Numbered from the stretch's first letter, positions 3,465 through 50,427 are shown. The stretch is DNA of 64,000 nt from a virus (IMGVR_UViG_3300010365_001407:49463-113462), one strand, 5' to 3'. Numbers and translations are program-made. Notes: generated by a model from the letters alone, not told the origin.

Positions 3465-6233
3465 ATGGCTTTAGTTGTCTTTAGTGAAAGAATAGATTTT
3501 AATTCAATTACTCCTCCAGAACAAGGTGGATATATAGTTGGATATAATATAGAGAATGATTTATTATCACAGATGGATTATCAAGGTATTGTTACTCCAA
3601 TAGGTGGTGTAGGAAGTGCAGGAACATTATTTAGTACATTATCACTAGGTAACACTACTGGTACATATTCTATAGTTTTAGATAGTTCTATAACAAAAGG
3701 AACTAATAAAATATCATTAGATAGTGGTATAGTTTCATTAACAACTGATAATGGTTCTTATGGAGAATCATACTTATATTTGAATTCAGGTAATGTAATT
3801 TTGGGTAATGGTTCCAGTAAAAGTTTTAGAATAGAAAATACAGGTATAACTACTAAATGGTCAGAGACTGATAGACAGATAATTAATACAAACTCATATG
3901 AGTTATTTTTAAATAATTTTGCAACATTACAATTTGGTCAATTATCATCAGGTGCTGGTAGTAAACTATCTGCTTTAATTTCTACCGATAACTCAACAAT
4001 TAGTAATAGTATTGTAAATACAGTTGTAATTGGTGGTCAAAATTTATCAGCAACACAATCTAATTCAGTTTATGTTCCTAACTTGTATATTCAAGATGGT
4101 AAAGTAATAAAAAGTACTAAGGGTACTGGTCAAATTAAAATTACTGAATTAGATATAATAACATCTAACTCTATTGGTAATTTTGCTTTAGTATCATCAA
4201 CTAGTTCAAATGTGTTCACTAAGAATGGTATTATCATAAAGGATAGTGCAACTGCATCAACAAGTCCTAATTTTGATTCTGGTATAACTTATATATCAAC
4301 TAAAAATTCAGGTGCAACTGCCAGTATAAAAAACTCTGTAATTATAGGTGGTAATGGTTTACAAGCCACTCAGGATAATACAGTATATCTTCCTAATGTT
4401 AATATAAATAATTTATATACATTACCATCAACTGATGGTACATCAGATCAGGTTATAAAAACAGATGGTTTAGGAAATTTATCTTGGACAACAGTAGGAG
4501 TTGGTGGAACAGGTGGAACAGGTTCAGGTATAACAAATACTATAACAAAGTGGACAAGTTCTTCAACTTTTGGTAATAGTAATATAACTGATGATGGTAC
4601 AACTATTAATATTAATGATTCATTAATAATAGGTACAAATTCTGTCTATACAAGTAATACATTGAATACAATAATTGGATATAGAACAAACGTATCTATG
4701 GCAGGTGGATTTAATACTGCTATTGGTGTTAATGCATTTAGGAATAATACAACAGGTGGAAATAATATTATTATGGGTAATAATTCACTCTATAATAATT
4801 CAACAGGTAATTTTAATCTTGCAATTGGTAATAACTCACTATATAATAACACAACCGCAGGTTTTAATATAGGAGTTGGACACAATACTTTATATGCAAC
4901 AACAACAGGTGTGGATAATGTTGCAATTGGTTATTTACCATTAAGTAGTAATACAACAGGTTCTAATAATATTTCAATTGGTAAAGCAGCAATGTTATTT
5001 AACACAACAGGTTCTGGTAATGTTGCAATTGGTTGGCAGTCATTACCAAGAAATACAAGTGCAGATAGTACAATTTCAATTGGTAGAAATGCAATGTTTT
5101 ATAGTAGAATAGGGGAACAAAATGTTGCAATTGGTGATGCCACAATGTATTACAATACCTTAGGAGGTTATAATGTTTCTGTTGGATATCAAGCAGCATT
5201 TGAAAATACAACAGGAATATTAACTTTAGGTACATTTTCTGAAGGAAGTGGATATACACCAGGAACACATTCAGGAGTTCAACTTAAATATAATGGTGGT
5301 GGTTTTTTAGATGTTGTTGCAAGTGATTATCCATTAGCAACAATAGTTGTTTCACCAGGAGGTACTGTGAGCTCAGTCACATTAGACACACCAGGACATG
5401 GATTTCAAAATACATCAACTATTCTTGGATGTACTGCAAGTCCAATTGGACCAGGGACTGGATTCACTGTAAGGATAAGTTCATTAATAAGCGGTGAATA
5501 TAATACAATTATTGGTAATGGTGCACTTCGTTATAATACAATAGGTAGTGATAATATAGCAATTGGTAAAAATGCTGGTAATAATACTATATTAGGAACA
5601 AATGTTATATCTAATAATTCTATATTTATAGGTAGTGATACTAGAGCACAGTCAACAGATGAAACTAATCAAATAGTAATAGGTTATAATACAACAGGAA
5701 ATGGATCTAACTCTACTACAATAGGTAATGATAATACATTAAAAACTATCATTAAAGGTAATGTTGGATTTGGATTAACTGGACCAAGTACAAAAGTTGA
5801 TATTTATGCAACTCAATCAGGTGGTGGTTTTAAACTACAAGATACATCAGAAGGACCAGGTTATGTTCTTATATCTGATGTGAATGGTGTTGCAAGTTGG
5901 ACATCTTCAGTTACATCAACCACAGCAATTGATGTTATAACATCAACATCAAGTATTACAACAAATACATTAACAGATGGTGGATATGATCAAAATGGTA
6001 GATGTGTTATTATAAATAATGGTACATATAGTATAAACCTTACTGTTAATTCTTATGACAGATTTACATCAACATATTTAAAACATGGAACTGCAAGTGT
6101 AACATTTGTACAAGGTTCAGGAAGAACACTAATTGATGTTGATGGTACATTTATATTAGATGGTTCTGTTGGTTCAACTGCAACAATAATAAGTTATGGT
6201 ACAACTGATTACTTAAGAGTAAGTAATGCATAA
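3465..6233 (+). CDS. tail-fibre-like structural protein with YadA-head / Hep_Hag-like tandem repeats
   Basis: 922 aa, N/S/T/G-rich. More than 12 tandem units of about 15 aa of the form NTTGxxNxAIGxxAL between aa 400 and 600. Confidence 0.65.
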   Translation: MALVVFSERIDFNSITPPEQGGYIVGYNIENDLLSQMDYQGIVTPIGGVGSAGTLFSTLSLGNTTGTYSIVLDSSITKGTNKISLDSGIVSLTTDNGSYGESYLYLNSGNVILGNGSSKSFRIENTGITTKWSETDRQIINTNSYELFLNNFATLQFGQLSSGAGSKLSALISTDNSTISNSIVNTVVIGGQNLSATQSNSVYVPNLYIQDGKVIKSTKGTGQIKITELDIITSNSIGNFALVSSTSSNVFTKNGIIIKDSATASTSPNFDSGITYISTKNSGATASIKNSVIIGGNGLQATQDNTVYLPNVNINNLYTLPSTDGTSDQVIKTDGLGNLSWTTVGVGGTGGTGSGITNTITKWTSSSTFGNSNITDDGTTININDSLIIGTNSVYTSNTLNTIIGYRTNVSMAGGFNTAIGVNAFRNNTTGGNNIIMGNNSLYNNSTGNFNLAIGNNSLYNNTTAGFNIGVGHNTLYATTTGVDNVAIGYLPLSSNTTGSNNISIGKAAMLFNTTGSGNVAIGWQSLPRNTSADSTISIGRNAMFYSRIGEQNVAIGDATMYYNTLGGYNVSVGYQAAFENTTGILTLGTFSEGSGYTPGTHSGVQLKYNGGGFLDVVASDYPLATIVVSPGGTVSSVTLDTPGHGFQNTSTILGCTASPIGPGTGFTVRISSLISGEYNTIIGNGALRYNTIGSDNIAIGKNAGNNTILGTNVISNNSIFIGSDTRAQSTDETNQIVIGYNTTGNGSNSTTIGNDNTLKTIIKGNVGFGLTGPSTKVDIYATQSGGGFKLQDTSEGPGYVLISDVNGVASWTSSVTSTTAIDVITSTSSITTNTLTDGGYDQNGRCVIINNGTYSINLTVNSYDRFTSTYLKHGTASVTFVQGSGRTLIDVDGTFILDGSVGSTATIISYGTTDYLRVSNA

Positions 6234-7214: not shown

Positions 7215-7218
7215 ATTG

Positions 7219-7306
7219 CGGAAGAAGTGAGACTTGAACTCACACGGGTGTTACCCCCAACAGTTTTCAAGACTGCGACCCATAGACCAACTTGGCTTAT
7301 TCTTCC
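7219..7306 (-). tRNA. class II tRNA, anticodon read as UGA (Ser); assignment tentative
   Basis: Perfect 7-bp acceptor GGAAGAA/TTCTTCC, T-arm GTGAG-TTCAAGT-CTCAC, anticodon stem-loop GCAGT-CTTGAAA-ACTGT and a long variable arm. The D-arm is hard to place by eye. Confidence 0.5.
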
Positions 7307-7349
7307 ATATTTTTAATTATACCACTTATTGTACCTTTTGATACTTTTG

Positions 7350-7435
7350 TGGAGAAGTGAGGTATCGAACCCCATGCGAGTAAACGCACCCACAGTTTTC
7401 AAGACTGGGTTTAGCACCTGCTAAATTACTCCTCC
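7350..7435 (-). tRNA. class II tRNA, anticodon loop CTTGAAA (UGA-like); identity tentative
   Basis: Acceptor GGAGGAG/CTTCTCC, T-loop TTCGATA and a 17-nt variable arm. It has the same anticodon loop as 7219-7306, so one of the two may be mis-read. Confidence 0.45.
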
Positions 7436-7442
7436 ATATTTG

Positions 7443-7515
7443 TGATTCCAATAGGATTCGAACCTATATCTGATCGTTCGTAGCGACCTATCCTATCCAA
7501 TTGAACGATGGAACC
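7443..7515 (-). tRNA. tRNA-Arg (anticodon ACG)
   Basis: 73 nt; acceptor GGTTCCA/TGGAATC, anticodon stem GGTCG/CGATC with loop CTACGAA, T-arm TAGGTTCGAATCCTA. Confidence 0.6.
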
Positions 7516-7522
7516 AATAAAA

Positions 7523-7552
7523 AAACCCACAAACTTTGAGGTTTGTGGGTTT
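7523..7552. terminator. bidirectional rho-independent terminator hairpin
   Basis: AAACCCACAAAC-TTTGAG-GTTTGTGGGTTT is a perfect 12-bp stem flanked by A-run and T-run. Confidence 0.6.
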
Positions 7553-7727
7553 CAAATAACTTTTAACTTAAAATTATGAATACACAAGAACCTCACTCAA
7601 TTTACTTGAGCGACTTGAAGAACTTGACGATGTAGTGCTTTGCACTCTCACTATGTGAGTACTTATAATTGTTTTCATAACTTATATATTAAAAATTTAT
7701 TCTTTTGTTTTACTTTTTTACTTTTAG

Positions 7728-7820
7728 TAGTCTGAACAGGAATCGAACCTGTGATGCGCGGAAGATACCCCTACTATATATAGGATCGACTACATAATGT
7801 TACCACTACATTATCAGACT
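7728..7820 (-). tRNA. tRNA-like element with irregular core, possibly Ile(UAU)-like or a pseudo-tRNA
   Basis: Canonical acceptor AGTCTGA/TCAGACT and T-arm ACAGG-TTCGATT-CCTGT, but 93 nt long. About 10 extra nt sit between the D-arm and the only good anticodon-like hairpin (TCCTA-TATATAG-TAGGG), which has A at position 33. Confidence 0.35.
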
Positions 7821-7829
7821 ATTTTTTTG

Positions 7830-7901
7830 TGCGGACTGACGGAATCGAACCGACCTCTTATGGGCTTCAACCATACGCTAAACCGTCTCAGCTAAATCCG
7901 C
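7830..7901 (-). tRNA. tRNA-Phe (anticodon GAA)
   Basis: 72 nt; acceptor GCGGATT/AGTCCGC, anticodon stem TATGG/CCATA with loop TTGAAGC, T-loop TTCGATT. Confidence 0.6.
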
Positions 7902-8678
7902 ATTATATTTTTTTATCCATTTTCTTATAGTGTTATCACTAACACCATATTTTTTACCAGTTGAGACATAGTTTGTTTCTTTTATATCTTTTAATAGTTG
8001 GTATAATGAAGGTCTTTCAACCTTTCTTTGTTTAAATGAATCACATTTAGAACACATTTTAGAACGTTTATATATTTCTATACCACATTCACAATACTTT
8101 TTATTATCTAATAGTTCAAATGTTGGTTTGTTTTCTACTAATCCATTTATATAAAGTATTAAACTGTCAATAAAATACTTTTTAGAATCCTTGTTCAATA
8201 ATTGATACTCACTCCATTTTATTCTAATTATATCCCAACCTAAGTCTTCTAAATATTTATTTCTTCTTTTATCACTTTCAATAATTTTATTATCTAAATA
8301 GTGTTGACTACCATCAACCTCTATATCTATTTTCTTATCTAAAATACAAAAGTCTAATTCGTACAATCCAATTCTGTAGGATTTTGTTATATTAATATTT
8401 TTATCTAAAAAAACCTCAGTAAAATATTTCTCAGGATATGATTCATTTCTACTATGATTTAATAGGTAAGGAACTTTATCAGGATTATTTTTTAAATATT
8501 CTTTTCTACTATTTGATATTTTTTTTCTAGTTTCATCTGATAACTTTCTATTTTTACCAATTTCACTTAATTTACTACATCTAATTTTATAATTTGGATT
8601 TAATTTACAATTTGTAATATGTCCACCAAGTTTTAATCCATTTTCTGTTGTAAATCCACAATACTTACACTCCTTCAT
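7878..8678 (-). CDS. homing-endonuclease-like protein (N-terminal Zn finger, NUMOD3-like motifs, Vsr/DUF559-like PD-(D/E)xK domain)
   Basis: 266 aa; CKYCGF...HITNC, LSDETRKKISNSRKEY, and YELDFCILDKKIDIEVDGSQHY...RRNKYLEDLGWDIIRI. Confidence 0.6.
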   Translation of the reverse strand: MKECKYCGFTTENGLKLGGHITNCKLNPNYKIRCSKLSEIGKNRKLSDETRKKISNSRKEYLKNNPDKVPYLLNHSRNESYPEKYFTEVFLDKNINITKSYRIGLYELDFCILDKKIDIEVDGSQHYLDNKIIESDKRRNKYLEDLGWDIIRIKWSEYQLLNKDSKKYFIDSLILYINGLVENKPTFELLDNKKYCECGIEIYKRSKMCSKCDSFKQRKVERPSLYQLLKDIKETNYVSTGKKYGVSDNTIRKWIKKYNADLAETV

Positions 8679-8754
8679 AATTCAATTATCTTTTCTTTTA
8701 TATATAAATAATTGAACTCCCTCTCCTTAAAAAAGCTGAGTGCTTGTAAATTAG

Positions 8755-8833
8755 TTCCCCCGACTGGGTACGATCCAGTAGTCTGCATATTAAAAGTATG
8801 CGGCTTTCTCCATTTAAGCTACGGGAGAGAATT
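8755..8833. repeat. 79-bp direct repeat, copy 1 (contains tRNA-Lys)
   Basis: Identical to 9152-9231: GTTCCCCCGACTGGGTACGATCCAGTAGTCTGCATATTAAAAGTATGCGGCTTTCTCCATTTAAGCTACGGGAGAGAATT. Confidence 0.9.
8756..8828 (-). tRNA. tRNA-Lys (anticodon UUU) with A54:U58-swapped T-loop
   Basis: Acceptor TCTCCCG/CGGGGGA, D-stem GCTT/AAGC, anticodon stem GCATA/TATGC with loop CTTTTAA, T-arm ACTGG-ATCGTAC-CCAGT. Confidence 0.55.
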
Positions 8834-8838
8834 ATTTG

Positions 8839-8911
8839 GGTGAAAGACGGATCCCGAGACCGCATCTCCTCCTTCACAGGGAGGCATCCTAACCTTTAGA
8901 CGACAATCACC
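8839..8911 (-). tRNA. degenerate tRNA-His-like element (anticodon GUG, G-1/C73), possible pseudogene
   Basis: Perfect anticodon arm CCTCC-CTGTGAA-GGAGG with extra 5' G and discriminator C. Only 5/7 acceptor pairs and a non-canonical T-arm (GCGGT-CTCGGGA-TCCGT). Confidence 0.3.
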
Positions 8912-8920
8912 ATATATCAG

Positions 8921-8991
8921 CACGCCATACAGGACTCGAACCTGTAACACTGGTTTTGGAGACCAGGATGATACCATTTCACCAATGACGT
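8921..8991 (-). tRNA. tRNA-Trp (anticodon CCA)
   Basis: 71 nt; acceptor ACGTCAT/ATGGCGT, anticodon stem CTGGT/ACCAG with loop CTCCAAA, T-arm ACAGG-TTCGAGT-CCTGT. Confidence 0.6.
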
Positions 8992-8998
8992 ATTTTGG

Positions 8999-9072
8999 GT
9001 TGACAGACGGGACTTGAACCCGCAATCCCTTGGCTCACAACCAAGTGCTTTAACCAATTAAGCTACCATCAA
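8999..9072 (-). tRNA. tRNA-His (anticodon GUG)
   Basis: Acceptor TTGATGG/CTGTCAA (two G-U pairs), D-stem GCTT/AAGC, anticodon stem CTTGG/CCAAG with loop TTGTGAG, T-arm GCGGG-TTCAAGT-CCCGT, discriminator C. No encoded G-1. Confidence 0.5.
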
Positions 9073-9074
9073 AG

Positions 9075-9146
9075 TGGAGAGAGTGGGGATCGAACCCACG
9101 ACACCTGCGGCTTCAACACAGTGCTCTACCTCTGAGCTACCTCTCC
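9075..9146 (-). tRNA. tRNA-Phe (anticodon GAA), second copy
   Basis: 72 nt; acceptor GGAGAGG/TCTCTCC, D-stem GCTC/GAGC, anticodon stem CTGTG/CGCAG with loop TTGAAGC, T-arm GTGGG-TTCGATC-CCCAC. Confidence 0.6.
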
Positions 9147-9151
9147 TTTTT

Positions 9152-9231
9152 GTTCCCCCGACTGGGTACGATCCAGTAGTCTGCATATTAAAAGTATGCG
9201 GCTTTCTCCATTTAAGCTACGGGAGAGAATT
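9152..9231. repeat. 79-bp direct repeat, copy 2 (contains the second tRNA-Lys)
   Basis: Identical to 8755-8833. Confidence 0.9.
9153..9225 (-). tRNA. tRNA-Lys (anticodon UUU), duplicate
   Basis: Identical sequence to 8756-8828. Confidence 0.55.
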
Positions 9232-20050: not shown

Positions 20051-20268
20051 TATTTCTTTCTTATAAAATATCCACTAACCCATTCTTCTTTATCAGAAAC
20101 ATTAGATTTTACTAAGTACTCTGTATAAGAATATACTTCAAACTCTGTCTGATTTTTAGTTCTTTTATCTAAAACTAAACTTTCTTCTAAAGGTTTACCA
20201 TCATGTTCTACAAAAGTAACAATTACTTTATCATCAATTTCTGCATTATCATTATACATTATATACAT
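20050..20268 (-). CDS. hypothetical protein
   Basis: 72-aa ORF. Confidence 0.4.
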   Translation of the reverse strand: MYIMYNDNAEIDDKVIVTFVEHDGKPLEESLVLDKRTKNQTEFEVYSYTEYLVKSNVSDKEEWVSGYFIRKK

Positions 20269-22088
20269 TATTTCAACATATTTTCTAATTCATCAACAGT
20301 AAGGATTTTAACTCCTAAACTAATTGCTTTTGTTTCTTTACTTGATCCTGAACCTTTAGCTTTCATTACAAGGTGAGAAGTAGTTTTTGATACAGATGAA
20401 CCAATTTTACCACCTCTTGATGTAATAGTTTCTTCTAAATCAGCTCTTCTTACTCCAGTAAATACAAATGATGTACCAGCTAAATCATCACCAACTTGAA
20501 CAGCTTCCACTTTTTGTGCAATTGTTATTGGAAGGTCTTTAACAAATGTATAGAATTTATCATAACTATCCAAATAAGACTTGGCTGAAATCTCAGCAAA
20601 TCCTTCTATTGACATAACTTGTTCTAATGTAGGCTTTTCTGAAAACTCTAATAGAGCTAATTTTTTACTACCTAATCCTTTAAATAATCCTGTTGCATGT
20701 TGTAATTTAGATAATTCAACATTCTCAGTACATTTTCTAATTGAATCAAATACAATAGCAGCTTTTCTCTTACCAAATCGATCGATTGATTCAAAATCTT
20801 TTTTAGTTGCATTTAAAACAGCTTCAACTGTTTGGTAACCTGCATCCCATAATTGATTAATAACACCTTCTCCAACATTATCGGCTTCTAAAATTTCAAA
20901 GAAAGAAACAATTTGTTTTGTTTTTTGTGTATCAGTTTCAGTTAGAGTAATCAATTCAATTCCTGCTTCATTCCATCCAAGTTCAACACCTTCAATTGTT
21001 GGTAGAACAAACTCAACAGTTTTAGTAACTTCAACGATTTTAGGAATAACCATACCACTGCGGATTACTCTAATTTTTGAACCAATACCCAATCCATTAT
21101 CCTTAACAAATTTTGCATTATTTCCAGTTACATTAGAAACAGTTACTCCATCTAAATTAATTGGTTCCACCTGTATAACAGGTTTCAATAAACCCTGTTT
21201 AGAAATATTCCAAGTTATTCCAGTTACTGTTGTTATTTTATTTTCAACAAAAGAAATGTGTTTAAAAGCTCTTGAAAAACAAGGATTTGATGTTGAAGTT
21301 TCTCTACCTAATTCTTCTTGTAATTTTAGATTATTTATCTCAATAATAAGACCATCAATTTCATAATCAATAGACCACTCTTTGAATAAATCAATTAATA
21401 AGTTTTCTGATAAATCAGATATTTTAGAGATATGATAAGAAACTTTAATATCTTGATTATTATTTAGTTCATCAATAAGTTCTTTTTTTGTAGATAATCC
21501 ATCAATAACACCACCATATTTAATATAATCAATATCTTCTAATATATCATGTAAAGTTTTAGAATTCAACATTCCAGCTACTAAGTTTCTAGGATTTGCA
21601 AATTCTTTTGAGTATTTATCTAAAAATACTTTTTTAGACATTATGACTTCTCCATAAGTTATGGAAAAGTTTGTATTTTTATTAAGTTTATTGTTTATTA
21701 ATTTATAATGTTCATTAGAATTTTGTCCAATAAACCCATCACCTCTAGTAGTTGCAGTATCTTTTATTTCATCAACACATAAAGATAATCCATCAAACTT
21801 AGGAGTAATAATCACCTCTTCATTTTTAGATATTCCTTTTAACCTACACCAATCAGATATTTCCTCCATAGTTTTAATCTTATTCATACTAAACATAGGA
21901 ATAGGTAATTTAACCTTTCTAGAATCATCCAATACTTCAATTCCTACTTTATTAAAGTATTCATTTTCTGGATCATACTCTAAAAGAGTTTCTAGTAATT
22001 GATCATAATCATAATCAGACATTATAGGATTTCCTTGTCTGTATTTATCATTAGCTTCTTCTAATTTTTCTACTATTCTATCTATCAT
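20268..22088 (-). CDS. ligA: NAD-dependent DNA ligase (LigA-like)
   Basis: 606 aa; N-terminal Ia-like YDYDQLLETL, adenylation motif TPKFDGLSL (KxDG) and a C-terminal BRCT-like FVFTGVRRADLEETITSRGGKIGSSVSKTTSHLVM. Confidence 0.75.
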   Translation of the reverse strand: MIDRIVEKLEEANDKYRQGNPIMSDYDYDQLLETLLEYDPENEYFNKVGIEVLDDSRKVKLPIPMFSMNKIKTMEEISDWCRLKGISKNEEVIITPKFDGLSLCVDEIKDTATTRGDGFIGQNSNEHYKLINNKLNKNTNFSITYGEVIMSKKVFLDKYSKEFANPRNLVAGMLNSKTLHDILEDIDYIKYGGVIDGLSTKKELIDELNNNQDIKVSYHISKISDLSENLLIDLFKEWSIDYEIDGLIIEINNLKLQEELGRETSTSNPCFSRAFKHISFVENKITTVTGITWNISKQGLLKPVIQVEPINLDGVTVSNVTGNNAKFVKDNGLGIGSKIRVIRSGMVIPKIVEVTKTVEFVLPTIEGVELGWNEAGIELITLTETDTQKTKQIVSFFEILEADNVGEGVINQLWDAGYQTVEAVLNATKKDFESIDRFGKRKAAIVFDSIRKCTENVELSKLQHATGLFKGLGSKKLALLEFSEKPTLEQVMSIEGFAEISAKSYLDSYDKFYTFVKDLPITIAQKVEAVQVGDDLAGTSFVFTGVRRADLEETITSRGGKIGSSVSKTTSHLVMKAKGSGSSKETKAISLGVKILTVDELENMLK

Positions 22089-22089
22089 A

Positions 22090-22275
22090 TTAAAATTCTT
22101 TTTCTATATTTTTACCTCTTTTTTCCATATCTTCTCTAATCAACTTCTCAATATATCTTGACCTCTTGGGTATTTCATTTTTATCCAAAAAATCATCTAA
22201 TTTATCTAATAGTTTTTCATTAACAGAAAATGATATTTTTCTTTTCTTTTTATCCTCAGATTTCTTATTTGCCAT
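22090..22275 (-). CDS. ribbon-helix-helix (CopG/Arc-like) DNA-binding protein
   Basis: 61 aa; KISFSVNEKLLDKLDDFLDKNEIPKRSRYIEKLIRED is a typical RHH beta-strand plus two helices. Confidence 0.55.
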   Translation of the reverse strand: MANKKSEDKKKRKISFSVNEKLLDKLDDFLDKNEIPKRSRYIEKLIREDMEKRGKNIEKEF

Positions 22276-22360
22276 TGTATATTTTTTATTTTACAAATAT
22301 ATATAAAATATTTCAATTTATTACAAAAAAAGTATAAAATTATTACTTTTTGAGTTTTGA

Positions 22361-22380
22361 AACTTAATATATACTATAAC
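22361..22380 (+). promoter_or_regulatory. AACTTAATATATACTATAAC promoter-like motif
   Basis: Upstream of the small ORF at 22400; a mirror motif at 22290-22320 serves the divergent RHH gene. Confidence 0.35.
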
Positions 22381-22399
22381 AAAAATAAGTAATTAAATT

Positions 22400-22567
22400 A
22401 TGAAAACAAAGAGTAAAAAGGAAAAAGTGATAGTATCATTATCAATTGACCAAAAATTAGATGATTATATGAATGAAATGTTTGATAATAAATCTCAATA
22501 TATTGAGTGGTTGGTAGAACAGGATTTATTAAAAAATGGAATAGATTTAGAAAAAATTATACTATAA
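22400..22567 (+). CDS. small RHH-like protein, 55 aa, not in the supplied ORF track
   Basis: Manual translation: MKTKSKKEKVIVSLSIDQKLDDYMNEMFDNKSQYIEWLVEQDLLKNGIDLEKIIL. Its stop overlaps the ATG of the next gene (TAATATG). Confidence 0.4.
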   Translation: MKTKSKKEKVIVSLSIDQKLDDYMNEMFDNKSQYIEWLVEQDLLKNGIDLEKIIL

Positions 22568-22568
22568 T

Positions 22569-23312
22569 ATGAAAAGGAAAGGTAATGGATATTGGACATA
22601 TGAAAGATGTAGAGAAGAAGCTTTAAAATATATTAGTTCATCTGAATTACAAAGAAATTGTAGTAGTGTATATAATAAAATCTATATTAATGGTTGGAAT
22701 GAACTTACTCAACATTTTATTAAAATTGGGAATAGATATAAAAGATTGGTATATGTTTATGAATTTAGTGATAATTTTTTCTATGTAGGTCTTACAGGTA
22801 ATATCAATAGAAGAAGAAAACAACATATTAATGATATTGATAGTTCTGTCTATAAACATTCAAAATTAACAAAGTTAAATCCAAATTTATTGATAGTATC
22901 TGATTATATTGATGTTGATAATTCAGTAGAATTGGAAAAAATCTATTTTGATAAATATATTAAAAATGGTTGGATTTCACTTAATAAAGTAAAAACTGGT
23001 AATATTGGTTCATGTAATATAAAATGGAACAAAGAAGAATGTATTAAAGAGAGTTTGAAATATTCAAAGATAATAGATTATCAGAGAAATTCTAAAAGTT
23101 CATATAACTCAGCACTTAAAAATGGTTGGGTTGATGAAATATGTTCTCATATGATAAGAAGAAAGTGTAAAAATGGTGAATATAATGATAAAAACAAATG
23201 TTTTATTGAAGCAAGTAAATACAAAAGTAAGTCAGAGTTTCATAAAAATAATTGGAGTGCCTGGAATTACTCAAAAAAGAATGGTTGGTTGTATGATTTT
23301 TATGATAACTAA
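22569..23312 (+). CDS. GIY-YIG domain (homing-endonuclease-like) protein
   Basis: 247 aa; RLVYVYEFSDNFFYVGLTGNINRRRKQH GIY-YIG core with repeated W-containing modules either side. Confidence 0.55.
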   Translation: MKRKGNGYWTYERCREEALKYISSSELQRNCSSVYNKIYINGWNELTQHFIKIGNRYKRLVYVYEFSDNFFYVGLTGNINRRRKQHINDIDSSVYKHSKLTKLNPNLLIVSDYIDVDNSVELEKIYFDKYIKNGWISLNKVKTGNIGSCNIKWNKEECIKESLKYSKIIDYQRNSKSSYNSALKNGWVDEICSHMIRRKCKNGEYNDKNKCFIEASKYKSKSEFHKNNWSAWNYSKKNGWLYDFYDN

Positions 23313-23361
23313 CTTTTAATAATAATACTATATAATATAGATAAAAATAAAATAAATAATA

Positions 23362-24528
23362 ATGGATTTTACAAATAAATATAATGATAAAGAGAAAAAG
23401 AAAAATGGAGTTTTTTACACTCCAAAAGACATAGCTGAGTTTATGGCTAGTAAAAGTAAGTTTGATGATGGTAAAGGTATATGGTTGGATCCTTGTTGTG
23501 GATTAGGTATATTAGCCATATCACTGGCATCAATTCAAGATGATCCTATTGATTTTATAGAAAATAGACTCATAATCAATGATATGGATAAATTTCAATT
23601 AGATATAGCCTTAAATAATTTTAAAGAAAAATTTGGTGTTATTCCTAAAAGTTTCAATGAGGATTTTTTATCTTATGATTTTAAGTGTGATTATGTTATA
23701 ATGAATCCACCTTACTTCAAATATAAAGATAGTGATATATATGCATATTTTATAGAAAAGGTTTGTAATATATCAAATGGATTTATTAGTATAAATCCCA
23801 TTTCATTTACTAATGGTTCAAAATTTAAAAAGATTAGAAAATCTATTTTAGATTTTAGTTCTATAAATTTGTATCATTTTGACAATATACCAGGTCATAT
23901 TTTTGATGATGCTGATGTTAGAGTTTCTATAATTGTATCAAGTAATGTAGAAAATAATAGAAAGACAACTACTCAAATTAGATGGCAATCAAAGAAGAGG
24001 GAAGAAATGATTAAAAATTTGGATAGTAATTTAGATGAAGCTATTTTTACAGAAGATATTTTTTATAAAACATCACCAAATACAACACATCTTATACATG
24101 ATAATACATTATCAAATTATGTGGTTAATAAATCAGATTATCCAATTTATATCACTAGTCTTACAAGATATTTTATAACAGGATCAACTAAAAAATTAGA
24201 TAGAAATGGTCAGATAGAGATTTTTCTAAAAGATGAAGATTCATATAATAAAGCTTTAATTATGATAAATAGTTCATATCTTTATTGGTGGTGGAGAACA
24301 TCAGATAGTTCAATGTCTTTAACTAAAAGAACTTTATTATCTTTACCATGGATAGATTTCAAATATGAAAATGATATAATATCTGAGGTATTGGAAAGTG
24401 AGAATATAAATAAGGTGTATAAAATGAATGCTGGGAAATCACAGGAAAATATTAAACATAGTAAAGAATTGGTTGCCAAATTAAATTCATTATTTATACC
24501 AGGGGACTTTATTAAACTTCAAGATTAA
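23362..24528 (+). CDS. N6-adenine DNA methyltransferase, gamma class (TaqI/Eco57I-like)
   Basis: 388 aa; motif X GVFYTPKDIAEFMA, motif I LDPCCGLGILAISLA, motif IV VIMNPPYF, then a variable TRD-like C-terminal half. Confidence 0.75.
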   Translation: MDFTNKYNDKEKKKNGVFYTPKDIAEFMASKSKFDDGKGIWLDPCCGLGILAISLASIQDDPIDFIENRLIINDMDKFQLDIALNNFKEKFGVIPKSFNEDFLSYDFKCDYVIMNPPYFKYKDSDIYAYFIEKVCNISNGFISINPISFTNGSKFKKIRKSILDFSSINLYHFDNIPGHIFDDADVRVSIIVSSNVENNRKTTTQIRWQSKKREEMIKNLDSNLDEAIFTEDIFYKTSPNTTHLIHDNTLSNYVVNKSDYPIYITSLTRYFITGSTKKLDRNGQIEIFLKDEDSYNKALIMINSSYLYWWWRTSDSSMSLTKRTLLSLPWIDFKYENDIISEVLESENINKVYKMNAGKSQENIKHSKELVAKLNSLFIPGDFIKLQD

Positions 24529-24531
24529 AAA

Positions 24532-24561
24532 TAAAAAATTCCCTTAAAGGGAATTTTTTAT
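24532..24561. terminator. bidirectional terminator hairpin
   Basis: AAAATTCCC-TTAAA-GGGAATTTT between the convergent gene ends. Confidence 0.6.
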
Positions 24562-25487
24562 TTTGTGTTTAGAAAATGTTGTATAGATACTTCACCAACA
24601 TGTTGTTTAATTTTACCAAAATCTATATATGTTCTACCATCATTATCTTCTTTAAGATCAGTCTTTTTGAAAGAAAAAGTTGCATTTTTGTGTATATATT
24701 TATATCTACTTGAAGTTCTTCCACCTCTTTGTATAATATCTTCAATATCATTCTTATTAACATAATGTTTATTATCAACTAAGGATAATTTGTTTTCAGT
24801 AAAAACTTTTCTAGTATTTCTACCACAACTTCTAACCTCTATCTTAAATGAAAACTTACTTTTATATTCATCAATTGTCATTATACTTATTATACCATTA
24901 TTATCATAACTAATAATGTGATCAAAGTTATTTGTAATAATATCTTCAATATTAAAAATTTTATTATGTCCTTGGTTTTCTAAAATATTGTAGTTTTCTA
25001 ATTCACCACCAGTTTCAAATAAAGATTTTACATATTCCTTATATTTTTCATTTTTTGATGTAAAATCAATTGGTTTACCATTATCATCATATGTAAATCC
25101 ACAAGATTTACCATATGCAACAGGTTCTTTTATTTCAAAGATTTTAATTTTATTTTCAATCTTATCAGTTATTACCAAATCTGACATTCCTGAACCACCA
25201 TCTTGTTTAATAGAATATCTTTCATTTTCATAAATACCATTCCCAATATAAACACATCCTAAATGATTTGCTATTGTTTGTATTATCATGGTTTCAACTA
25301 TTCTACCAGGTTGGAATAAAATTAAATTATTTATTCTATTATTTATATCATTTCTTAGGAATGGTAAATTTTCTAAAATATCAGATACTTCATCAATTCT
25401 TTCAAAATTATCTCTCACTGCATTTTTAATTTTATTTAGTGATGCTAAATTTATTCTTAACTCTTTATTTTTTAACTCTTCTATCAT
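24558..25487 (-). CDS. hypothetical protein, candidate PD-(D/E)xK restriction endonuclease partner of the adjacent methyltransferase
   Basis: 309 aa; central GMSDLVITDKIENKIKIFEIKEP resembles a D...(D/E)xK catalytic core. It is convergent and terminator-sharing with the MTase. Confidence 0.4.
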   Translation of the reverse strand: MIEELKNKELRINLASLNKIKNAVRDNFERIDEVSDILENLPFLRNDINNRINNLILFQPGRIVETMIIQTIANHLGCVYIGNGIYENERYSIKQDGGSGMSDLVITDKIENKIKIFEIKEPVAYGKSCGFTYDDNGKPIDFTSKNEKYKEYVKSLFETGGELENYNILENQGHNKIFNIEDIITNNFDHIISYDNNGIISIMTIDEYKSKFSFKIEVRSCGRNTRKVFTENKLSLVDNKHYVNKNDIEDIIQRGGRTSSRYKYIHKNATFSFKKTDLKEDNDGRTYIDFGKIKQHVGEVSIQHFLNTK

Positions 25488-25518
25488 ATTACTATTATTT
25501 TTTTACAAAGATAAGGTA

Positions 25519-25770
25519 TTAAACTAATTTATCCAAATTTTTATTTCTATTATATGTTTTTTCATCATAGACTTCTATGACATATCCTTCTATCTTAAAC
25601 TCAGTTGCCCATTTGTCATAACCTGTCTTATAGGAAGGATGTTTTTCTAATACCTTATCAATTGCTTCTTGTTTGTTTTCAGCTACTACTTGAAAACTTG
25701 GCATTGGTCCACTTCTCCAACCACCATCATTAAATGTTACATCATATATTTTCATGACACAAATATACAA
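25519..25770 (-). CDS. hypothetical protein
   Basis: 83-aa ORF. Confidence 0.45.
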   Translation of the reverse strand: MYICVMKIYDVTFNDGGWRSGPMPSFQVVAENKQEAIDKVLEKHPSYKTGYDKWATEFKIEGYVIEVYDEKTYNRNKNLDKLV

Positions 25771-25792
25771 AATAAAACTTAAAGAATAAACA

Positions 25793-25810
25793 AAAATTAA
25801 TATATACTAA
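25793..25810 (+). promoter_or_regulatory. AAAATTAATATATACTAA promoter-like motif
   Basis: 17 nt upstream of the ATG at 25828. Confidence 0.35.
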
Positions 25811-25827
25811 AAAATCATTTTAGAATA

Positions 25828-28800
25828 ATGGCAATTCAAAGTTCATTTCCAAAGGTAGCAGACCAAATAATATCTTATAATAAAAATATTGTTGAAATAC
25901 TATCTAAAATTAGTTCATTAACAACAACAACTGAATCATCAGTAAACCTTCAAATATATGATGCAAATGGAGTATTAAGAAACTTCACAATGCCATCCTT
26001 TACATCTTTAAAAGGTGAGATTGATAGACTAAATAATAATATAAATTCATTATATGGTATTGATGGTGCTGGTTCTTTAATACAAACAACTACACAAAAC
26101 AAATATAAAAAATTGGTTACTGTAGATTTGAATAGAGATCCTACTCCTATTAGTAGTGTTGGTTTTATATCTACTTTTAAATCAAGTCCTAACTGGTTCT
26201 TTGATTCATTAATGGATCCAATGATTTCTATTGAACTGGATTTATCTAATAAAATTGAAGATAATGTAAGAAAATGTTTAGTAAGAAGATATATGGTTGA
26301 TTTTGAAAAAAATGCAGATGGTTCATTAACTACTAATGGTCAATCAGCATTAAATTCTTATAACCAATTATTTAGAGGAAATGCAAATATTATTATTTCA
26401 GAATTTGAAAATTGGCACAAAACTACTACAGGTGTTTTAAATGCTATTAATCCTAAGTTTGATGAACAGATTTTTGATTTAGAACCAAATAACTTATTAT
26501 ATGATGGTCAATTTAGTGTATTAAGAATACAAGAAGATAGATTAAATAAAAAACTTTGGTATGTATTAGATACACTTGAGTATTTAGTAGTTGATGCAGG
26601 TCAAACTAAACAATTGGCAGTTGGTGATGAGTTAATTATTAATACTGCAAAATCATCTACTAAGTATAAAATTATAGAAGTTTCTACAGTTGAAAGTAAT
26701 CCAAGAGTTAGAGTTGAGAGATTAGAAGGTATTGAACCAATTCCAGTTGGTATTGGGACATTAAAAGTTTATTCTGATGTTATCTATACTAAAAAATGTA
26801 GAGTAAGTGTTGGTTACAATGAGAGAAATGTTCTTTTCATTAAACCAATTAATACTGATAATCACTTAGTTGCTAAGAAATGGAGTTTAGGTACAGGTTA
26901 CTATACTAATGATTTAAGATTGGATTCTTCATCTACTGCAAATGGTTTATCAATGGAACAATTCTATATTGATTATGTTTATGACTATGGTGTTGTTTTA
27001 CAAGATTTAGTTGCTAAGAAAACTCCTAATATATTAGGTGGTACTCCTGTTGCACCGGCTTTAAGTGTTGATAACTTTAAAGTTGTACAAATCAATAAAC
27101 ACCTTACAGACTCACCAGATTCTAATTTGGTTAAACAAAAACACAATTATCAATTATCTCTTAAATCTGAGATACAGCAAATACAAGAAGCAATTTCATC
27201 AAGAAATAAAACAGCTAAATTTACTAAATATAAATCTGACTCAGCAAAAAAACAAGCAGACTTAGAGATTGAAGGATTAGTATCTAAAAAAGATAGTAAG
27301 AGTAAATTACTTGCATCAGTAACTCAAGAGATTATTGATCTTTCTAAAGATCCTAAAACTAAAGTTGAACCTCAATTTAATGTAAGAGGTTTCTGGACTA
27401 TTCCTGCTGCAGTTATTACAACTGGAACTAGACCACAAGAAATTGTACAATTCAGAGTTCAATATAGAAAAGTAAGTAAAGATGGTAAAGAATCTCCTGT
27501 TGAAACTTATTCAATAACAGATTCTCAAAGTAAGGCAGCTTTCTCTAACTGGTCTGAATATAAAACAGATGCAAGAAAAAGAGTTTATAATAGTACAACT
27601 GGTGAATACACTTGGCAAATTGAAGATGTTACATCAGCAGATACACCAAATATAAATCAATTTGATTTACCTATTTTACCAAATGAAAGAATTGAATTTA
27701 GAATTAAATCAATTTCAGAGGTAGGTTGGCCAGAAGCAGCAGTTGAATCAGATTGGTCTGATATATTGACTGTGGACTTCCCAGATGACTTAAATACGGT
27801 TCTTAATGAAACTGACTTTATATTAAGAGAAGCTACTAAGGAAGACTTAAAAACAAGTATGAATGCTGAGCTATCTGCTAAAGGTTTAGATGAACACTTA
27901 TCAGATACAGTAACAGTTAATAATGTTACTTATCATCATGAAGCTAAGAAAGTTCTTTCAGGATTCCAAGATGAAAATGGAGTTTCATTAGATTTATATA
28001 CTTATATTAAAGCTTTAACTGATAGAATTACCTCATTAGAAGAAAAAATCAAAAGAGCTAAAGGTGAACTTGAAATCATTATTCTTAGAAATAATCAAGA
28101 GTTTATTATATCAAATGGTTCTGAAACAACATTTAATGTTGAGTGTGAAGATTACTTAGATTCTTATACTGCAACAGGTGCACCAACAGGTAGAGTTTAC
28201 CAAAACAATATCTATGTGATTAAAGACTTTGTTGTTAAGTTTAGAAATAAAGCTACAGAATCTGTACTTGGATTATTATCTAATAGAAATTATGTTGATG
28301 GTAGTGGAACTGTTTATAACTCAACTGCACCTCAAACCTTCTGGGTAAATAATCAAGATGAATTAAAAACAGTTGATGTTAGTGGTCAAACAAGAACACA
28401 ACTTGATAATCAATATATCTGGATGGTTAATTATGATTCAATTACTCAAACAACAGTTTCTAAATTATCAGAAAATGTTGGTAATGCATTTAATACAGAT
28501 AATTCAAACTCAGTAACAAGTGTACTTTCATCAACTGAATATAACCTTGGATATAATGAGTCATCAATATTAGCATTTATTGGTAATAATAAATCATTAC
28601 TAGATCCAACAAAATGGAATGATAGTACTATTTCAGTTGCATCAACTACTAAATTCTTGACTACAATTCATCCAGTTGTTAAAGACCTTGAAAGTATTCA
28701 AGAAGTAAATAGTGATAAGATTCATACAGTTGCTGCAGGAGATAAAAACTCTATAATAGTTCCATTGAATATTTATTTCAAAATGAACTCATTGGATAGT

Positions 28801-47900: not shown

Positions 47901-50399
47901 CATAAAACTAAATTCAATAGATCTAGATTAATTACAGGTATATTTAAAAGAGCTTATATTACTAATTCATTATTGAGAGATGAATCTTTTGATGTTAGTG
48001 ATAAAGACTTTAATAATATTAAAAAGTTAAAAAATTTAATATTTATAGATACTATATTCTCAAATAACTCTAATATTTTATCTAAGGCAACTTATATGAA
48101 TTCATCTTTTGTAGGTGGTACTGATATATGGGATAATGGTATAGTTTATGATTCTATTTGGAATGGAGGAAACTTTAAAAATGGATTAGTAAAAGAATCA
48201 ATTTGGGTAGATGGTATATTTAGTGATGGTCTATTTTATAACTCAAGAAGTTTTAATAATGACTTATTAGGTGTTGACTATAATGAAAATGTAAAAACCA
48301 GATATTATAAAAGTGGTACTGAATCTAATGCAAGATTTTCATGGCAAAATGGTACATTTTTAAATGGTGAATTTTATAAAAGTGATTGGGAAAATGGAGT
48401 ATTTAATGGTGGTAAGTTTTACTATTCTAAATTTTATAATGGAATATTTAATAATGGTGTTATAGGTGATAGATCAATTCCTATAGATGATACTTGGTTC
48501 TATAATGGAACTATAAATTATGCAGTTGTGGAAAATTCCAAAATTGTTTCTCAGAAGTATAATGGTATTTCAAATTCTGTTATTACTTGGAACAATGGTA
48601 TATTTAATTCAGGTGTTTTTGGTACAAATGATACACAAATGGTGACTTTGACTAACCCAGGTGGAGGCACCACAACCAGTTTTGTAGTTAATACTGCTAC
48701 TTGGAGTTATGGTATATTTAATGGTGGTGAGTTTAGAAATAAAGCAAAATGGAAAGATGGTATATTTAATGGTGGTAAATTCTTATCTAACTATGGATTA
48801 AATTTACCTGACAATAGTTTACAACCTAAAGAAGACTATTCTTGGGAGTATGGTATATTTAATGGAGGTGAGTTTGGTAATGCAAACACTATAACTAACT
48901 CAAATTGGTTTGATGGTGAGTTTAATGGAGGGCAGTTTAAGGGAAGAGTTTGGAATAATGGTATATTCTCATTTGGAGAATTTTTAGGAAGTGGTGGTAT
49001 TGCAATTGGTGGAACATCATCAATTGTATTACAATCTAATCCAGGTAAATTTGTAAACTCATATAATTTCCCACCATTTGGATCTATAAGAAGATACTAT
49101 GGTCTATGGAGAAATGGTTATGTAACTGATATTAAAGATAAGTATATTACAGATAAAAAATTATATACTGATATTAAAAGGTCAAGTGATACTACTAAAG
49201 TTGTCAATAAAGCTATTTTAAAAAATATGCTTTGGGAAAAAGGTATATTTTCACACCCAGGTGGTGAGATGATTAACTCAGTTTGGTTGGATGGTACATT
49301 TGAAAGTGGTAGATTTTTATCAAGTTCATTTAATCCTTATGTAACAAGAAATGGTGTTAATAGATTTAATTTTAGTGATACTTGTTCTTGGAAGAATGGT
49401 ATATTTGATGGTGGTGAGTTTAATATTTCTACTTGGGAAAATGGAACATTTGTTTCAGGAACTGCAGTAGGTATGAATTGGAAAAATGGTATTGTTAATT
49501 ATATGAATGCATATAATGTATTCTGGGAAGATGGTTTATGGAGAAATGGTAACTGGAATGGTTCTTATTTTAACTTAACTAAAACAGGTTCAGTTATTGA
49601 TAATTATGCATTACAAGTTCTAAACAATGGCATGCCACTTGGTGTTACATCATCATCTTTACATGTTTGGAATATATTTCATAATGAATCATTAAGTGAT
49701 TATACACAATCTAATACAACAGGATTTGTATTTTCAGCCAATACTAATGATGATAGTCCACCTGCTTGGAGTTCAAATAGTAGTTTTGGAGAAGTTGGTA
49801 CAATACCTACAACTTCTTCAATTACTATAACTTGGGATCCTGCAGATCCTGAGTTTGATTTATTACCAGAACCACTTACTACTGAGAATAGAATTGGTTC
49901 AAATACTTCTATGAAAATTTTATTAACAAGTGTACTTAATAATTTAATAAATGCAGAATGGCAACTAAGTTCAGATGGTACAAATTGGTCTTCAAGTCCT
50001 GTAACTATTGCAGTTGAAAATATATTTACACAAATGCCTATAGGTGATAACTATTTCAGAATTGAGGATACAATAACCACTGGATTATCAATAAGTACAA
50101 TATATTCTAATGTTTTAAAATACACAAAACAATCATACTCATTTTTAGTTTCAGTAGGAGTCAAATCATGTCAGTATTCAAATTTTGTGGGTCAAACAGT
50201 ATTTTCAACTCAGTTTACAGAAACTTTATATTCTGATTCACCTACATTAACATATAATACAATCTTATATACAAATCCAAATCTTACAATACTTACAAAT
50301 GTAACAACAATAAAATTAGAGACAGGATTAATAATTTTTGAGTTGGTTTCAGGTGAAATTTTGAATTTGACTCCTGTAGGTGAGATTTGTTTTAACTAA
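44973..50399 (+). CDS. giant virion protein (tail fibre / appendage-like) with W-x-x-G-x-F-N-G-G-x-F repeats
   Basis: 1808 aa; central region has many degenerate repeats such as WENGVFNGGKFY, WKDGIFNGGKFL, YGIFNGGEFGN and WFDGEFNGGQFKG. Gly/Asn/Ser/Thr-rich. Confidence 0.6.
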   Translation: MSTFSSANIIQKNIITKPYLLTTEELNQIGSGINLVGYDFLKTLPTPIDETIVNFRYGNPSSPRLLNWVEDYTIAGVKYTLFYTEVNSGLKVGDKVFIINGAYDSNLLIQQDKYKKGRDGYKVLFVDECIIVLDIEFIGWLPSSETSENQDVFDDFIKVYYINDQNDFIHVNRQITTRNYNFDFKFNPYQNNLIFTDVNTFESVDGWGENAGLTGGPGFFIKNGTYSWINITTDFMSGSYSLVDTYSNNKILILNGGFAINGFEFKEDSVYKWDSTLLTWVVNVKHENNNPPIITKSNFRRGKFDGQWNGGLYGTSDERIIWNSSTATWNSGTLLNTIWQTGIMNSFYSQPDSYFAEFDYSFATSSAPYGLPYQKVNNPDNNGYGYNFVINSDIQNAVINNGNVTNSKLGASASSYLVVEKYLDGTFDINNFGTASGLTVNKALFDNCKFINANIENTEIRNSRAVNSRFNKVKSVNSHYKSSLFLNSNYISDNIIKVLDYDEFTYSSFNNATETHKVYKFYINKRSYEKFKLKDSFYIKGIKINDNTSNLINFFDTKFKVGPWKEYYDYNLVDANEYGFQKFSLTYNAFVSTPKENEYRYSVNGGNFLQDIKGKDYYSVDIFVKKDFDLLPLININDKPAKDFNDTFMGTGILDFSEAYIVNSDFESGVFENSNWNSGNHINYSNDNNITKGLISGGGLYNFTLSSSATNSLFIENTISNLGVDSEVELDYFEDDSIVFLNAVDYDTRGKVTGFTIVNQGAGYTSSILTTSGGSGTGLTIDVQASTIGSVNGILFVPDNNNNYYDATLGYTTRFTNVVTQNGPTTGVGLEVLITVSNLAPYFITSISVSSAGYGYNIGDELEVQHVNSNEPPGTTKFTITSILNGGVLNTSTQSYQGLGYQVGDLVTLVGGVVPSIIEINSVEGTLTRLPDAYKIKRTINGTTQQLELISLTGLPTLLDNGLFLTTNAENKYGYLHKTKFNRSRLITGIFKRAYITNSLLRDESFDVSDKDFNNIKKLKNLIFIDTIFSNNSNILSKATYMNSSFVGGTDIWDNGIVYDSIWNGGNFKNGLVKESIWVDGIFSDGLFYNSRSFNNDLLGVDYNENVKTRYYKSGTESNARFSWQNGTFLNGEFYKSDWENGVFNGGKFYYSKFYNGIFNNGVIGDRSIPIDDTWFYNGTINYAVVENSKIVSQKYNGISNSVITWNNGIFNSGVFGTNDTQMVTLTNPGGGTTTSFVVNTATWSYGIFNGGEFRNKAKWKDGIFNGGKFLSNYGLNLPDNSLQPKEDYSWEYGIFNGGEFGNANTITNSNWFDGEFNGGQFKGRVWNNGIFSFGEFLGSGGIAIGGTSSIVLQSNPGKFVNSYNFPPFGSIRRYYGLWRNGYVTDIKDKYITDKKLYTDIKRSSDTTKVVNKAILKNMLWEKGIFSHPGGEMINSVWLDGTFESGRFLSSSFNPYVTRNGVNRFNFSDTCSWKNGIFDGGEFNISTWENGTFVSGTAVGMNWKNGIVNYMNAYNVFWEDGLWRNGNWNGSYFNLTKTGSVIDNYALQVLNNGMPLGVTSSSLHVWNIFHNESLSDYTQSNTTGFVFSANTNDDSPPAWSSNSSFGEVGTIPTTSSITITWDPADPEFDLLPEPLTTENRIGSNTSMKILLTSVLNNLINAEWQLSSDGTNWSSSPVTIAVENIFTQMPIGDNYFRIEDTITTGLSISTIYSNVLKYTKQSYSFLVSVGVKSCQYSNFVGQTVFSTQFTETLYSDSPTLTYNTILYTNPNLTILTNVTTIKLETGLIIFELVSGEILNLTPVGEICFN

Positions 50400-50427
50400 A
50401 GTACATAAAAATAAAATAAAATATAAT

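Follow-up and report, generated by a model that had tools for sequence, protein, structure and literature searches.

Type II restriction-modification (R-M) systems are textbook biology, and on viral genomes they are rare but documented, with examples in a few phages and in the chloroviruses, where R-M is associated with virion packaging and with the degradation of host DNA. How seldom phages carry the complete apparatus is evident from a count over 831 phage genomes, which hold nine R-M systems (seven Type II and two Type IV) as against 143 solitary methyltransferases (MTases) (PMC4176335), so that a complete system is unusual for a phage, as was pointed out in a preliminary description of the DNA considered here. 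This DNA is a 64,000-nucleotide stretch from a virus (IMGVR_UViG_3300010365_001407:49463-113462, referred to below as the window), in which positions 23,362 to 25,487 had been described as a gamma-class N6-adenine MTase gene (M) convergent with a gene (R) for a candidate PD-(D/E)xK nuclease, the two possibly forming a phage-borne Type II pair. What kind of system do these two genes represent, and what might a phage do with it? The pair is probably a Type II R-M cassette with separate M and R genes that is carried by a huge phage and that encodes two enzymes of predicted activity. The pairing suggested at the outset is supported by the linkage of the two genes at every informative locus, by a conserved active site in the nuclease, by a fusion of the two proteins, by purifying selection on both genes and by the insertion of the block relative to a related phage. 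What is new is the huge-phage lineage that carries the cassette, the mobility of the cassette among such phages, and a large restriction endonuclease (REase) family that is uncurated in four libraries.

The cassette and the repeat between its two genes are laid out in the following way, with the basis of each assignment in brackets.

23362-24528, + strand: M gene, gamma-class N6-adenine DNA methyltransferase, 388 amino acids (aa) (open reading frame (ORF), Pfam, PHROG, PADLOC, motifs)
24558-25487, - strand: R gene, predicted Type II restriction endonuclease of PD-(D/E)xK fold, 309 aa (model, conserved residues)
24528-24564, no strand: perfect inverted repeat AAAAATAAAAAATTCCC-TTA-GGGAATTTTTTATTTTT, candidate bidirectional intrinsic terminator (RNA fold; function predicted)

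Translation confirms both ORFs at these coordinates and in convergent orientation, tail to tail with a gap of 29 bp. They are not chance ORFs. The G+C content of the window is 23-24%, which makes stop codons so frequent that reading frames of 388 and 309 aa are not expected by chance, and the genes are real because the identical 309-aa protein is present on 11 contigs from several samples, because R has close homologs in 49 clusters at 49% identity or above (every source-named copy being a "hypothetical protein"), and because the ratio of nonsynonymous to synonymous substitution (dN/dS), given below, is low. Between the genes a perfect 17-bp hairpin overlaps both stop codons, with runs of A and T on its flanks, and folds with a free energy of -18.2 kcal/mol (z = -5.2), a stability that none of 200 shuffled sequences equalled. 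The terminator that M and R had been said to share is thus borne out as a structure, which would presumably end transcription from either side. The hairpin was missed by a consensus terminator scan of the window, and promoter-like sites in the window are no commoner than in shuffled sequence (38 versus 40.4).

With the MTase, the three motifs reported earlier are all readable in the translation and follow the gamma-class order X-I-IV: motif X (GVFYTPKDIAEFM) has GVFYTP at residues 16-21, motif I (WLDPCCGLG) has DPCCGLG at residues 43-49, and motif IV is NPPY at residues 115-118. Profile comparisons agree with this assignment, giving matches to Pfam N6_Mtase (E 2e-8) and MTS, with Eco57I sub-threshold, to DNA methyltransferase families in PHROGs, and to the PADLOC MTase_II model PDLC03219 over residues 9-380 (E 4e-66); the best match among PDB sequences reached only E 0.01. 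About 270 residues follow NPPY and the PDLC03219 match runs through most of them, so the large C-terminal half that had been likened to a target-recognition domain is indeed there, and from its sequence it is predicted to be the target-recognition region. Homologs of the MTase fall into at least 160 clusters.

The identity of the 309-aa protein emerges from its fold and from its conserved residues. Neither as a single sequence nor as a profile does it have a significant match in Pfam, PHROGs, NCBIfam, PADLOC or the PDB sequences; phmmer and profile hmmsearch against all PDB sequences returned only spurious matches of the Sac7d type at E > 0.1, and a Foldseek search of the model against the PDB gave nothing below E 0.03. 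Sac7d/Sul7d (E 0.009-0.9) was rejected as an identity for the protein, the match being a short beta-hairpin at residues 111-151, and a match to JetC (E 0.078) was dismissed as chance. The structure prediction, which had been proposed as a check, is confident, and the proteins that resemble it best in structure are, with few exceptions, Type II REases and other PD-(D/E)xK nucleases, the nearest being the monomeric, single-active-site enzymes HhaI, MspI and HinP1I, so that a nuclease assignment that was weak at first is now well supported. In the model a helical region takes up about residues 1-58, beta-sheet domains come after it, and the elements of a PD-(D/E)xK core are present in order, namely a helix (60-75) that carries E65, then strands, with an acidic residue, D103, directly before strand 104-108 and with E118-I-K120 at the end of the next strand (113-119). 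The resulting motif, SD-X14-EIK, falls within the peptide SDLVITDKIENKIKIFEIKEP (residues 102-122), in which a D...E-x-K nuclease core had been suspected from the outset, and it is the only D...ExK motif in R, which is consistent with a single active site.

Conservation picks out the same residues. Among close homologs E65, D103, E118 and E121 are invariant and K120 is nearly so. A profile search through 1.84 billion representative proteins found 64 relatives of R, and in a broad alignment of 62 sequences, which includes relatives at about 23-28% identity and in which most exceptions are alignment gaps, E65 is kept in 59, D103 in 61, E118 in 60 and K120 in 61. The suspected core is therefore a conserved catalytic motif, and E65, D103, E118 and K120 are the candidate catalytic residues. 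The alignment also retains Q59 (56/62), N175, E217, R219 and N224 (61/62 each) and R254 (55/62), with G97, G137 and Q295 likewise conserved. Towards the C-terminus the element E217-x-R219-xx-G-R/K-N224, with R254 and Q295, forms a conserved block that, judged by sequence, probably functions in DNA binding or recognition.

Fundamental to the interpretation of the two genes as a pair is that they are found together. Loci were gathered by exact-protein look-ups and by scans of IMG/VR, GTDB genomes and JGI metagenomes, with both genes placed by tblastn, and a locus was informative if it held a close homolog of R together with enough flanking DNA (n = 26). The MTase adjoins R in all 26, convergently in 23 (gaps of 12-103 bp) and divergently in three (gap of about 365 bp). 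Without exception the MTase is more strongly conserved than R (for example 90 versus 85, 73 versus 52 and 67 versus 49 percent identity). Except for L001, L011 and L015, three relatives that are syntenic with the window, these loci have only M and R in common with it, and because the flanks differ while M and R recur, the pair itself is the mobile unit. Type I and Type III systems are ruled out, since only M and R are common to the loci and both proteins lack ATPase and helicase domains. An MTase that is 65% identical occurs as an orphan in phage contigs of 18-196 kb (L012-L014), and the sole copy of R with no MTase nearby (L030; JACCDN010776086.1, 1560 bp) is truncated after residue 236 and is possibly a decayed cassette.

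The association extends to distant relatives of R, for which five of the five examined lie in tandem with an MTase of the N6_Mtase/Eco57I type, in both gene orders. These MTases align to residues ~1-387 of the window MTase (each to at least ~16-379) at 25-49% identity, and the distant pairs are located as follows.

Mycoplasmopsis californica (LR215022.1) and M. equigenitalium (CP101808.1) chromosomes: M of 514 aa, then R of 377 aa
Contigs L034, L037, L038 and L039: tandem R-M pairs

The two proteins are also found joined, in an 896-aa protein (P0224, from a Logan contig of 4.6 kb) in which an MTase of the PDLC03219 type (E 7e-45) is fused to a C-terminal nuclease domain of the R type that retains a D...EFKEP motif; this is a single example, and an assembly or gene-calling artefact is possible. 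Comparison with the closest orthologs gives a dN/dS of 0.13-0.15 for R and of 0.12-0.13 for M, and both genes are clearly under purifying selection. Linkage that persists across divergence, a fusion, orphan copies of M with no intact orphan R, and purifying selection are together the classic signatures of a working R-M pair.

The R family as a whole comprises at least 564 clusters and is common in assemblies of Prevotella, Treponema, Bacillales and Mycoplasmopsis. All of its copies that come with a source name are labelled "hypothetical", and it is missed by every model in Pfam, NCBIfam, PADLOC and PHROGs, which makes it a concrete candidate for a new family of REases, whose specificity might be useful; it may already stand in REBASE as a putative entry. 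Parts of a paper on mycoplasma MTases (PMC10305163) contain no direct counterpart of the R-M family. Two further observations concern its distribution. On the unrelated contigs L037 and L039 the same 512-515-aa DUF2828/DUF7788 gene lies 3' of the distant R-M pair and may represent a third component linked to M and R in that branch. The cassette also occurs at 66-78% identity in a Cellvibrionaceae metagenome-assembled genome (MAG) (L021; CAZCJR010000058.1), together with a fragment resembling the 1433-aa phage protein of the window, and in a Nanoarchaeota MAG (L022; JBMCRE010000022.1), both of which are probably phage contigs in the wrong bins.

The carrier is probably a huge phage of the Mahaphage type that infects Bacteroidetes. 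A 1066-aa protein encoded beside the cassette has counterparts at 73% identity in LR745206.1 (634,780 bp) and at 68% in LR756502.1 (642,428 bp), with more distant relatives in Lak, Tenacibaculum and Chryseobacterium jumbo phages, while homologous MTases lie on contigs of up to 687 kb. The Mahaphage clade has genomes of 634, 636, 642 and 735 kb with predicted Bacteroidetes hosts (PMC7162821), and the main text of the paper on the huge-phage clades makes no mention of restriction or methyltransferases. Neither M nor R was matched by tblastn in 50,697 deposited phage records. The window also encodes an NAD-dependent ligase, and the distance from the ligase gene to the 1066-aa gene is about 500 bp in LR745206.1 (L036, 8502-9001) as against 3.7 kb in the window (compared span 20268-25828). 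Because the relative has only about 500 bp at the same site, the 3.7-kb block is either an insertion in the window lineage or a loss from the relative. The block consists of six genes, two of them RHH, one GIY-YIG, then M, R and an 83-aa ORF, and those that accompany M and R are the following.

22090-22275, - strand: RHH protein, 61 aa (Pfam RHH_3, PHROG transcriptional repressor)
22400-22567, + strand: RHH-like ORF, 55 aa, heading the string of GIY-YIG and MTase genes
22569-23312, + strand: GIY-YIG endonuclease-like ORF, 247 aa, directly 5' of the M gene (Pfam GIY-YIG, phrog_20046)
25519-25770, - strand: 83-aa ORF upstream of the R gene and on the same strand (no family match)

The RHH, RHH-like and GIY-YIG genes accompany the pair only in L001, L011 and L015, and are missing both from the remaining cassette loci and from LR745206.1. 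The 83-aa ORF, which is found only in L001 and L015, was considered as a component of the system and is not counted in it because it is not conserved beyond the closest relatives. Genes resembling homing endonucleases recur near the cassette, with GIY-YIG in the window, NUMOD in L011 and T5orf172 in L009, which points to a hotspot of mobile-element traffic.

Elsewhere in the window a cluster of nine tRNA genes, among them Ser, Arg, Phe (two), Lys (two), Trp and His, lies at 7218-9226 on the - strand, and to the tRNA at 7727-7820 ARAGORN gives a four-base anticodon, 'cgat', and no amino acid. At 50380-51852 on the + strand, between two ORFs of about 1800 aa, a 490-aa ORF has matches of the Hint type (AXH, PT-HINT, Hom_end_hint) and could be an intein-like or polymorphic-toxin-like module.

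As regards control of the cassette, a conserved controller (C) protein was looked for and rejected, no small ORF being kept across the cassette loci. Small RHH-like ORFs 5' of M are confined to the window lineage and to L005, and could be lineage-specific regulators of M expression. In the window two RHH-like genes lie back to back at 22090-22567; in L005, which is arranged differently, an RHH-like ORF of 52 aa (5666-5824) overlaps the start of the MTase gene. Palindromes are depleted over the 64 kb of the window, with 81 copies of GATC against 194 expected and 85 of CATG against 178 (GATC, CATG and CTAG having z of -8 to -10), a single GATATC against 21.7 and no GGTACC against 7.9, a pattern that may reflect avoidance of host restriction systems. 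Palindrome avoidance was also considered as a guide to the recognition site of the cassette and singled out no site; none is assigned on this basis, because a phage that methylates its own DNA has no need to shun the site and host R-M may explain the depletion.

How, then, might such a cassette operate within a phage? M would place an N6-methyl group on an adenine of a short site read by its C-terminal half and would thereby protect the phage genome, and R, as a Mg2+-dependent nuclease with a single active site, would cut unmethylated copies of what is presumably the same site. Converging on their shared hairpin terminator, the two genes would travel together between phage genomes as the smallest mobile unit. 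Since M and R both reside on the viral genome, the DNA attacked by the nuclease would be unmethylated and non-viral, and the likely targets would be the host chromosome and any phages or plasmids that co-infect the cell and lack the methylation. Phage DNA would already carry the methylation when packaged, and R could therefore be made at any time after infection without delay, which agrees with the lack of a conserved controller gene. A tentative proposal, and one that could well be wrong, is that Mahaphage-type phages use this horizontally exchanged cassette as an offensive weapon, in which the genome of the phage enters the cell already methylated and an HhaI-like REase, whose specificity may be new and would include adenine, destroys the DNA of the host and of co-infecting phages or plasmids.

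The same mechanism, differing only in its beneficiary, would apply if the cassette were real but mainly a selfish and addictive element, maintained by post-segregational killing and horizontal spread with little or no benefit to the phage. Such behaviour is known from Type II R-M systems (PMC4176335), and it would agree with a smallest common unit of M and R amid unrelated flanks, with the neighbours resembling homing endonucleases, and with the absence of the cassette from the same site in the closest complete phage genome. However, the clear purifying selection on both genes over long divergence and the retention of the cassette in many phage lineages count against pure selfishness, and post-segregational killing is hard to picture for the genome of a lytic phage, so that we regard this explanation as unlikely. 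Another arrangement, known from the chloroviruses, is a site-specific nicking endonuclease paired with an MTase. The structural proximity of the 309-aa protein to the monomeric HhaI, MspI and HinP1I might be taken to favour a nicking activity, because monomeric enzymes of this type nick if they are restricted to one binding orientation (PMC7026639). Yet the sequence has nothing that separates nicking from sequential double-strand cutting. Moreover, a gamma-class MTase that has one recognition region usually works with a palindromic site, where a monomeric REase cuts both strands, and we consider a dedicated nickase quite improbable. An orphan anti-restriction MTase that merely lies beside an unrelated PD-(D/E)xK nuclease, whether for recombination or repair, resembling a Holliday-junction resolvase, or for degradation of host DNA, is hardly credible in view of the linkage, fusion and selection described above.

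With a mobile and conserved R-M cassette, huge phages would gain a weapon or an exclusion system that works at the level of DNA, where they have so far been noted mainly for CRISPR-Cas and translation genes. Recognition of the R family also matters for better annotation of R-M and defence systems in gut bacteria and mycoplasmas.

The comparison with known systems can be made for each component and then for the cassette as a whole. The MTase resembles the gamma-class N6-adenine MTases of the M.TaqI type (Pfam N6_Mtase PF02384 / Eco57I PF07669; PDLC03219) in its motif order X-I-IV with NPPY and in matching a model of Type II MTases over almost its entire length. In both, the catalytic domain is N-terminal and the recognition domain C-terminal, a likeness of architecture that is drawn at the level of sequence. 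It differs in being without a tblastn match among the deposited phage records.

For the nuclease the closest parallel is the group of R.HhaI, HinP1I and MspI, whose catalytic and recognition beta-sheet domains are structurally similar to those of the R model. HhaI is a monomer of three beta-sheet domains in which, after helix alphaA, beta2 starts with D34 and beta3 ends with K48 within the motif SD-X11-EAK (PMC7026639), and the SD-X14-EIK of R has the same secondary-structure layout. By analogy with HhaI, MspI and HinP1I, R may cut as a monomer, one strand after the other. The differences are that R has no detectable sequence similarity to HhaI (16% identity in the structural alignment), that it is longer, at 309 aa against 258, and begins with an additional helical region of some 58 residues, and that HhaI is partnered by a C5-cytosine MTase whereas the partner of R belongs to the N6-adenine gamma class, because of which the site of the window cassette must contain adenine and cannot be GCGC.

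With respect to the fused Type IIG/IIC enzymes (Eco57I- or MmeI-like), the window MTase carries an Eco57I-type Pfam signature and P0224 is itself a fusion, but in the window M and R are separate genes on opposite strands. The nuclease domain is N-terminal in enzymes of the Eco57I and MmeI type, whereas that of P0224 is C-terminal. Taken as a whole, the cassette is most like the virus-borne Type II R-M systems of a few phages and of the chloroviruses, in that a complete pair of M and R resides on a viral genome, and it differs from these in that its REase family is missing from all four libraries that were searched and in that the phages of its carrier lineage are huge, probably lytic, uncultured and related to genomes of 634-642 kb.
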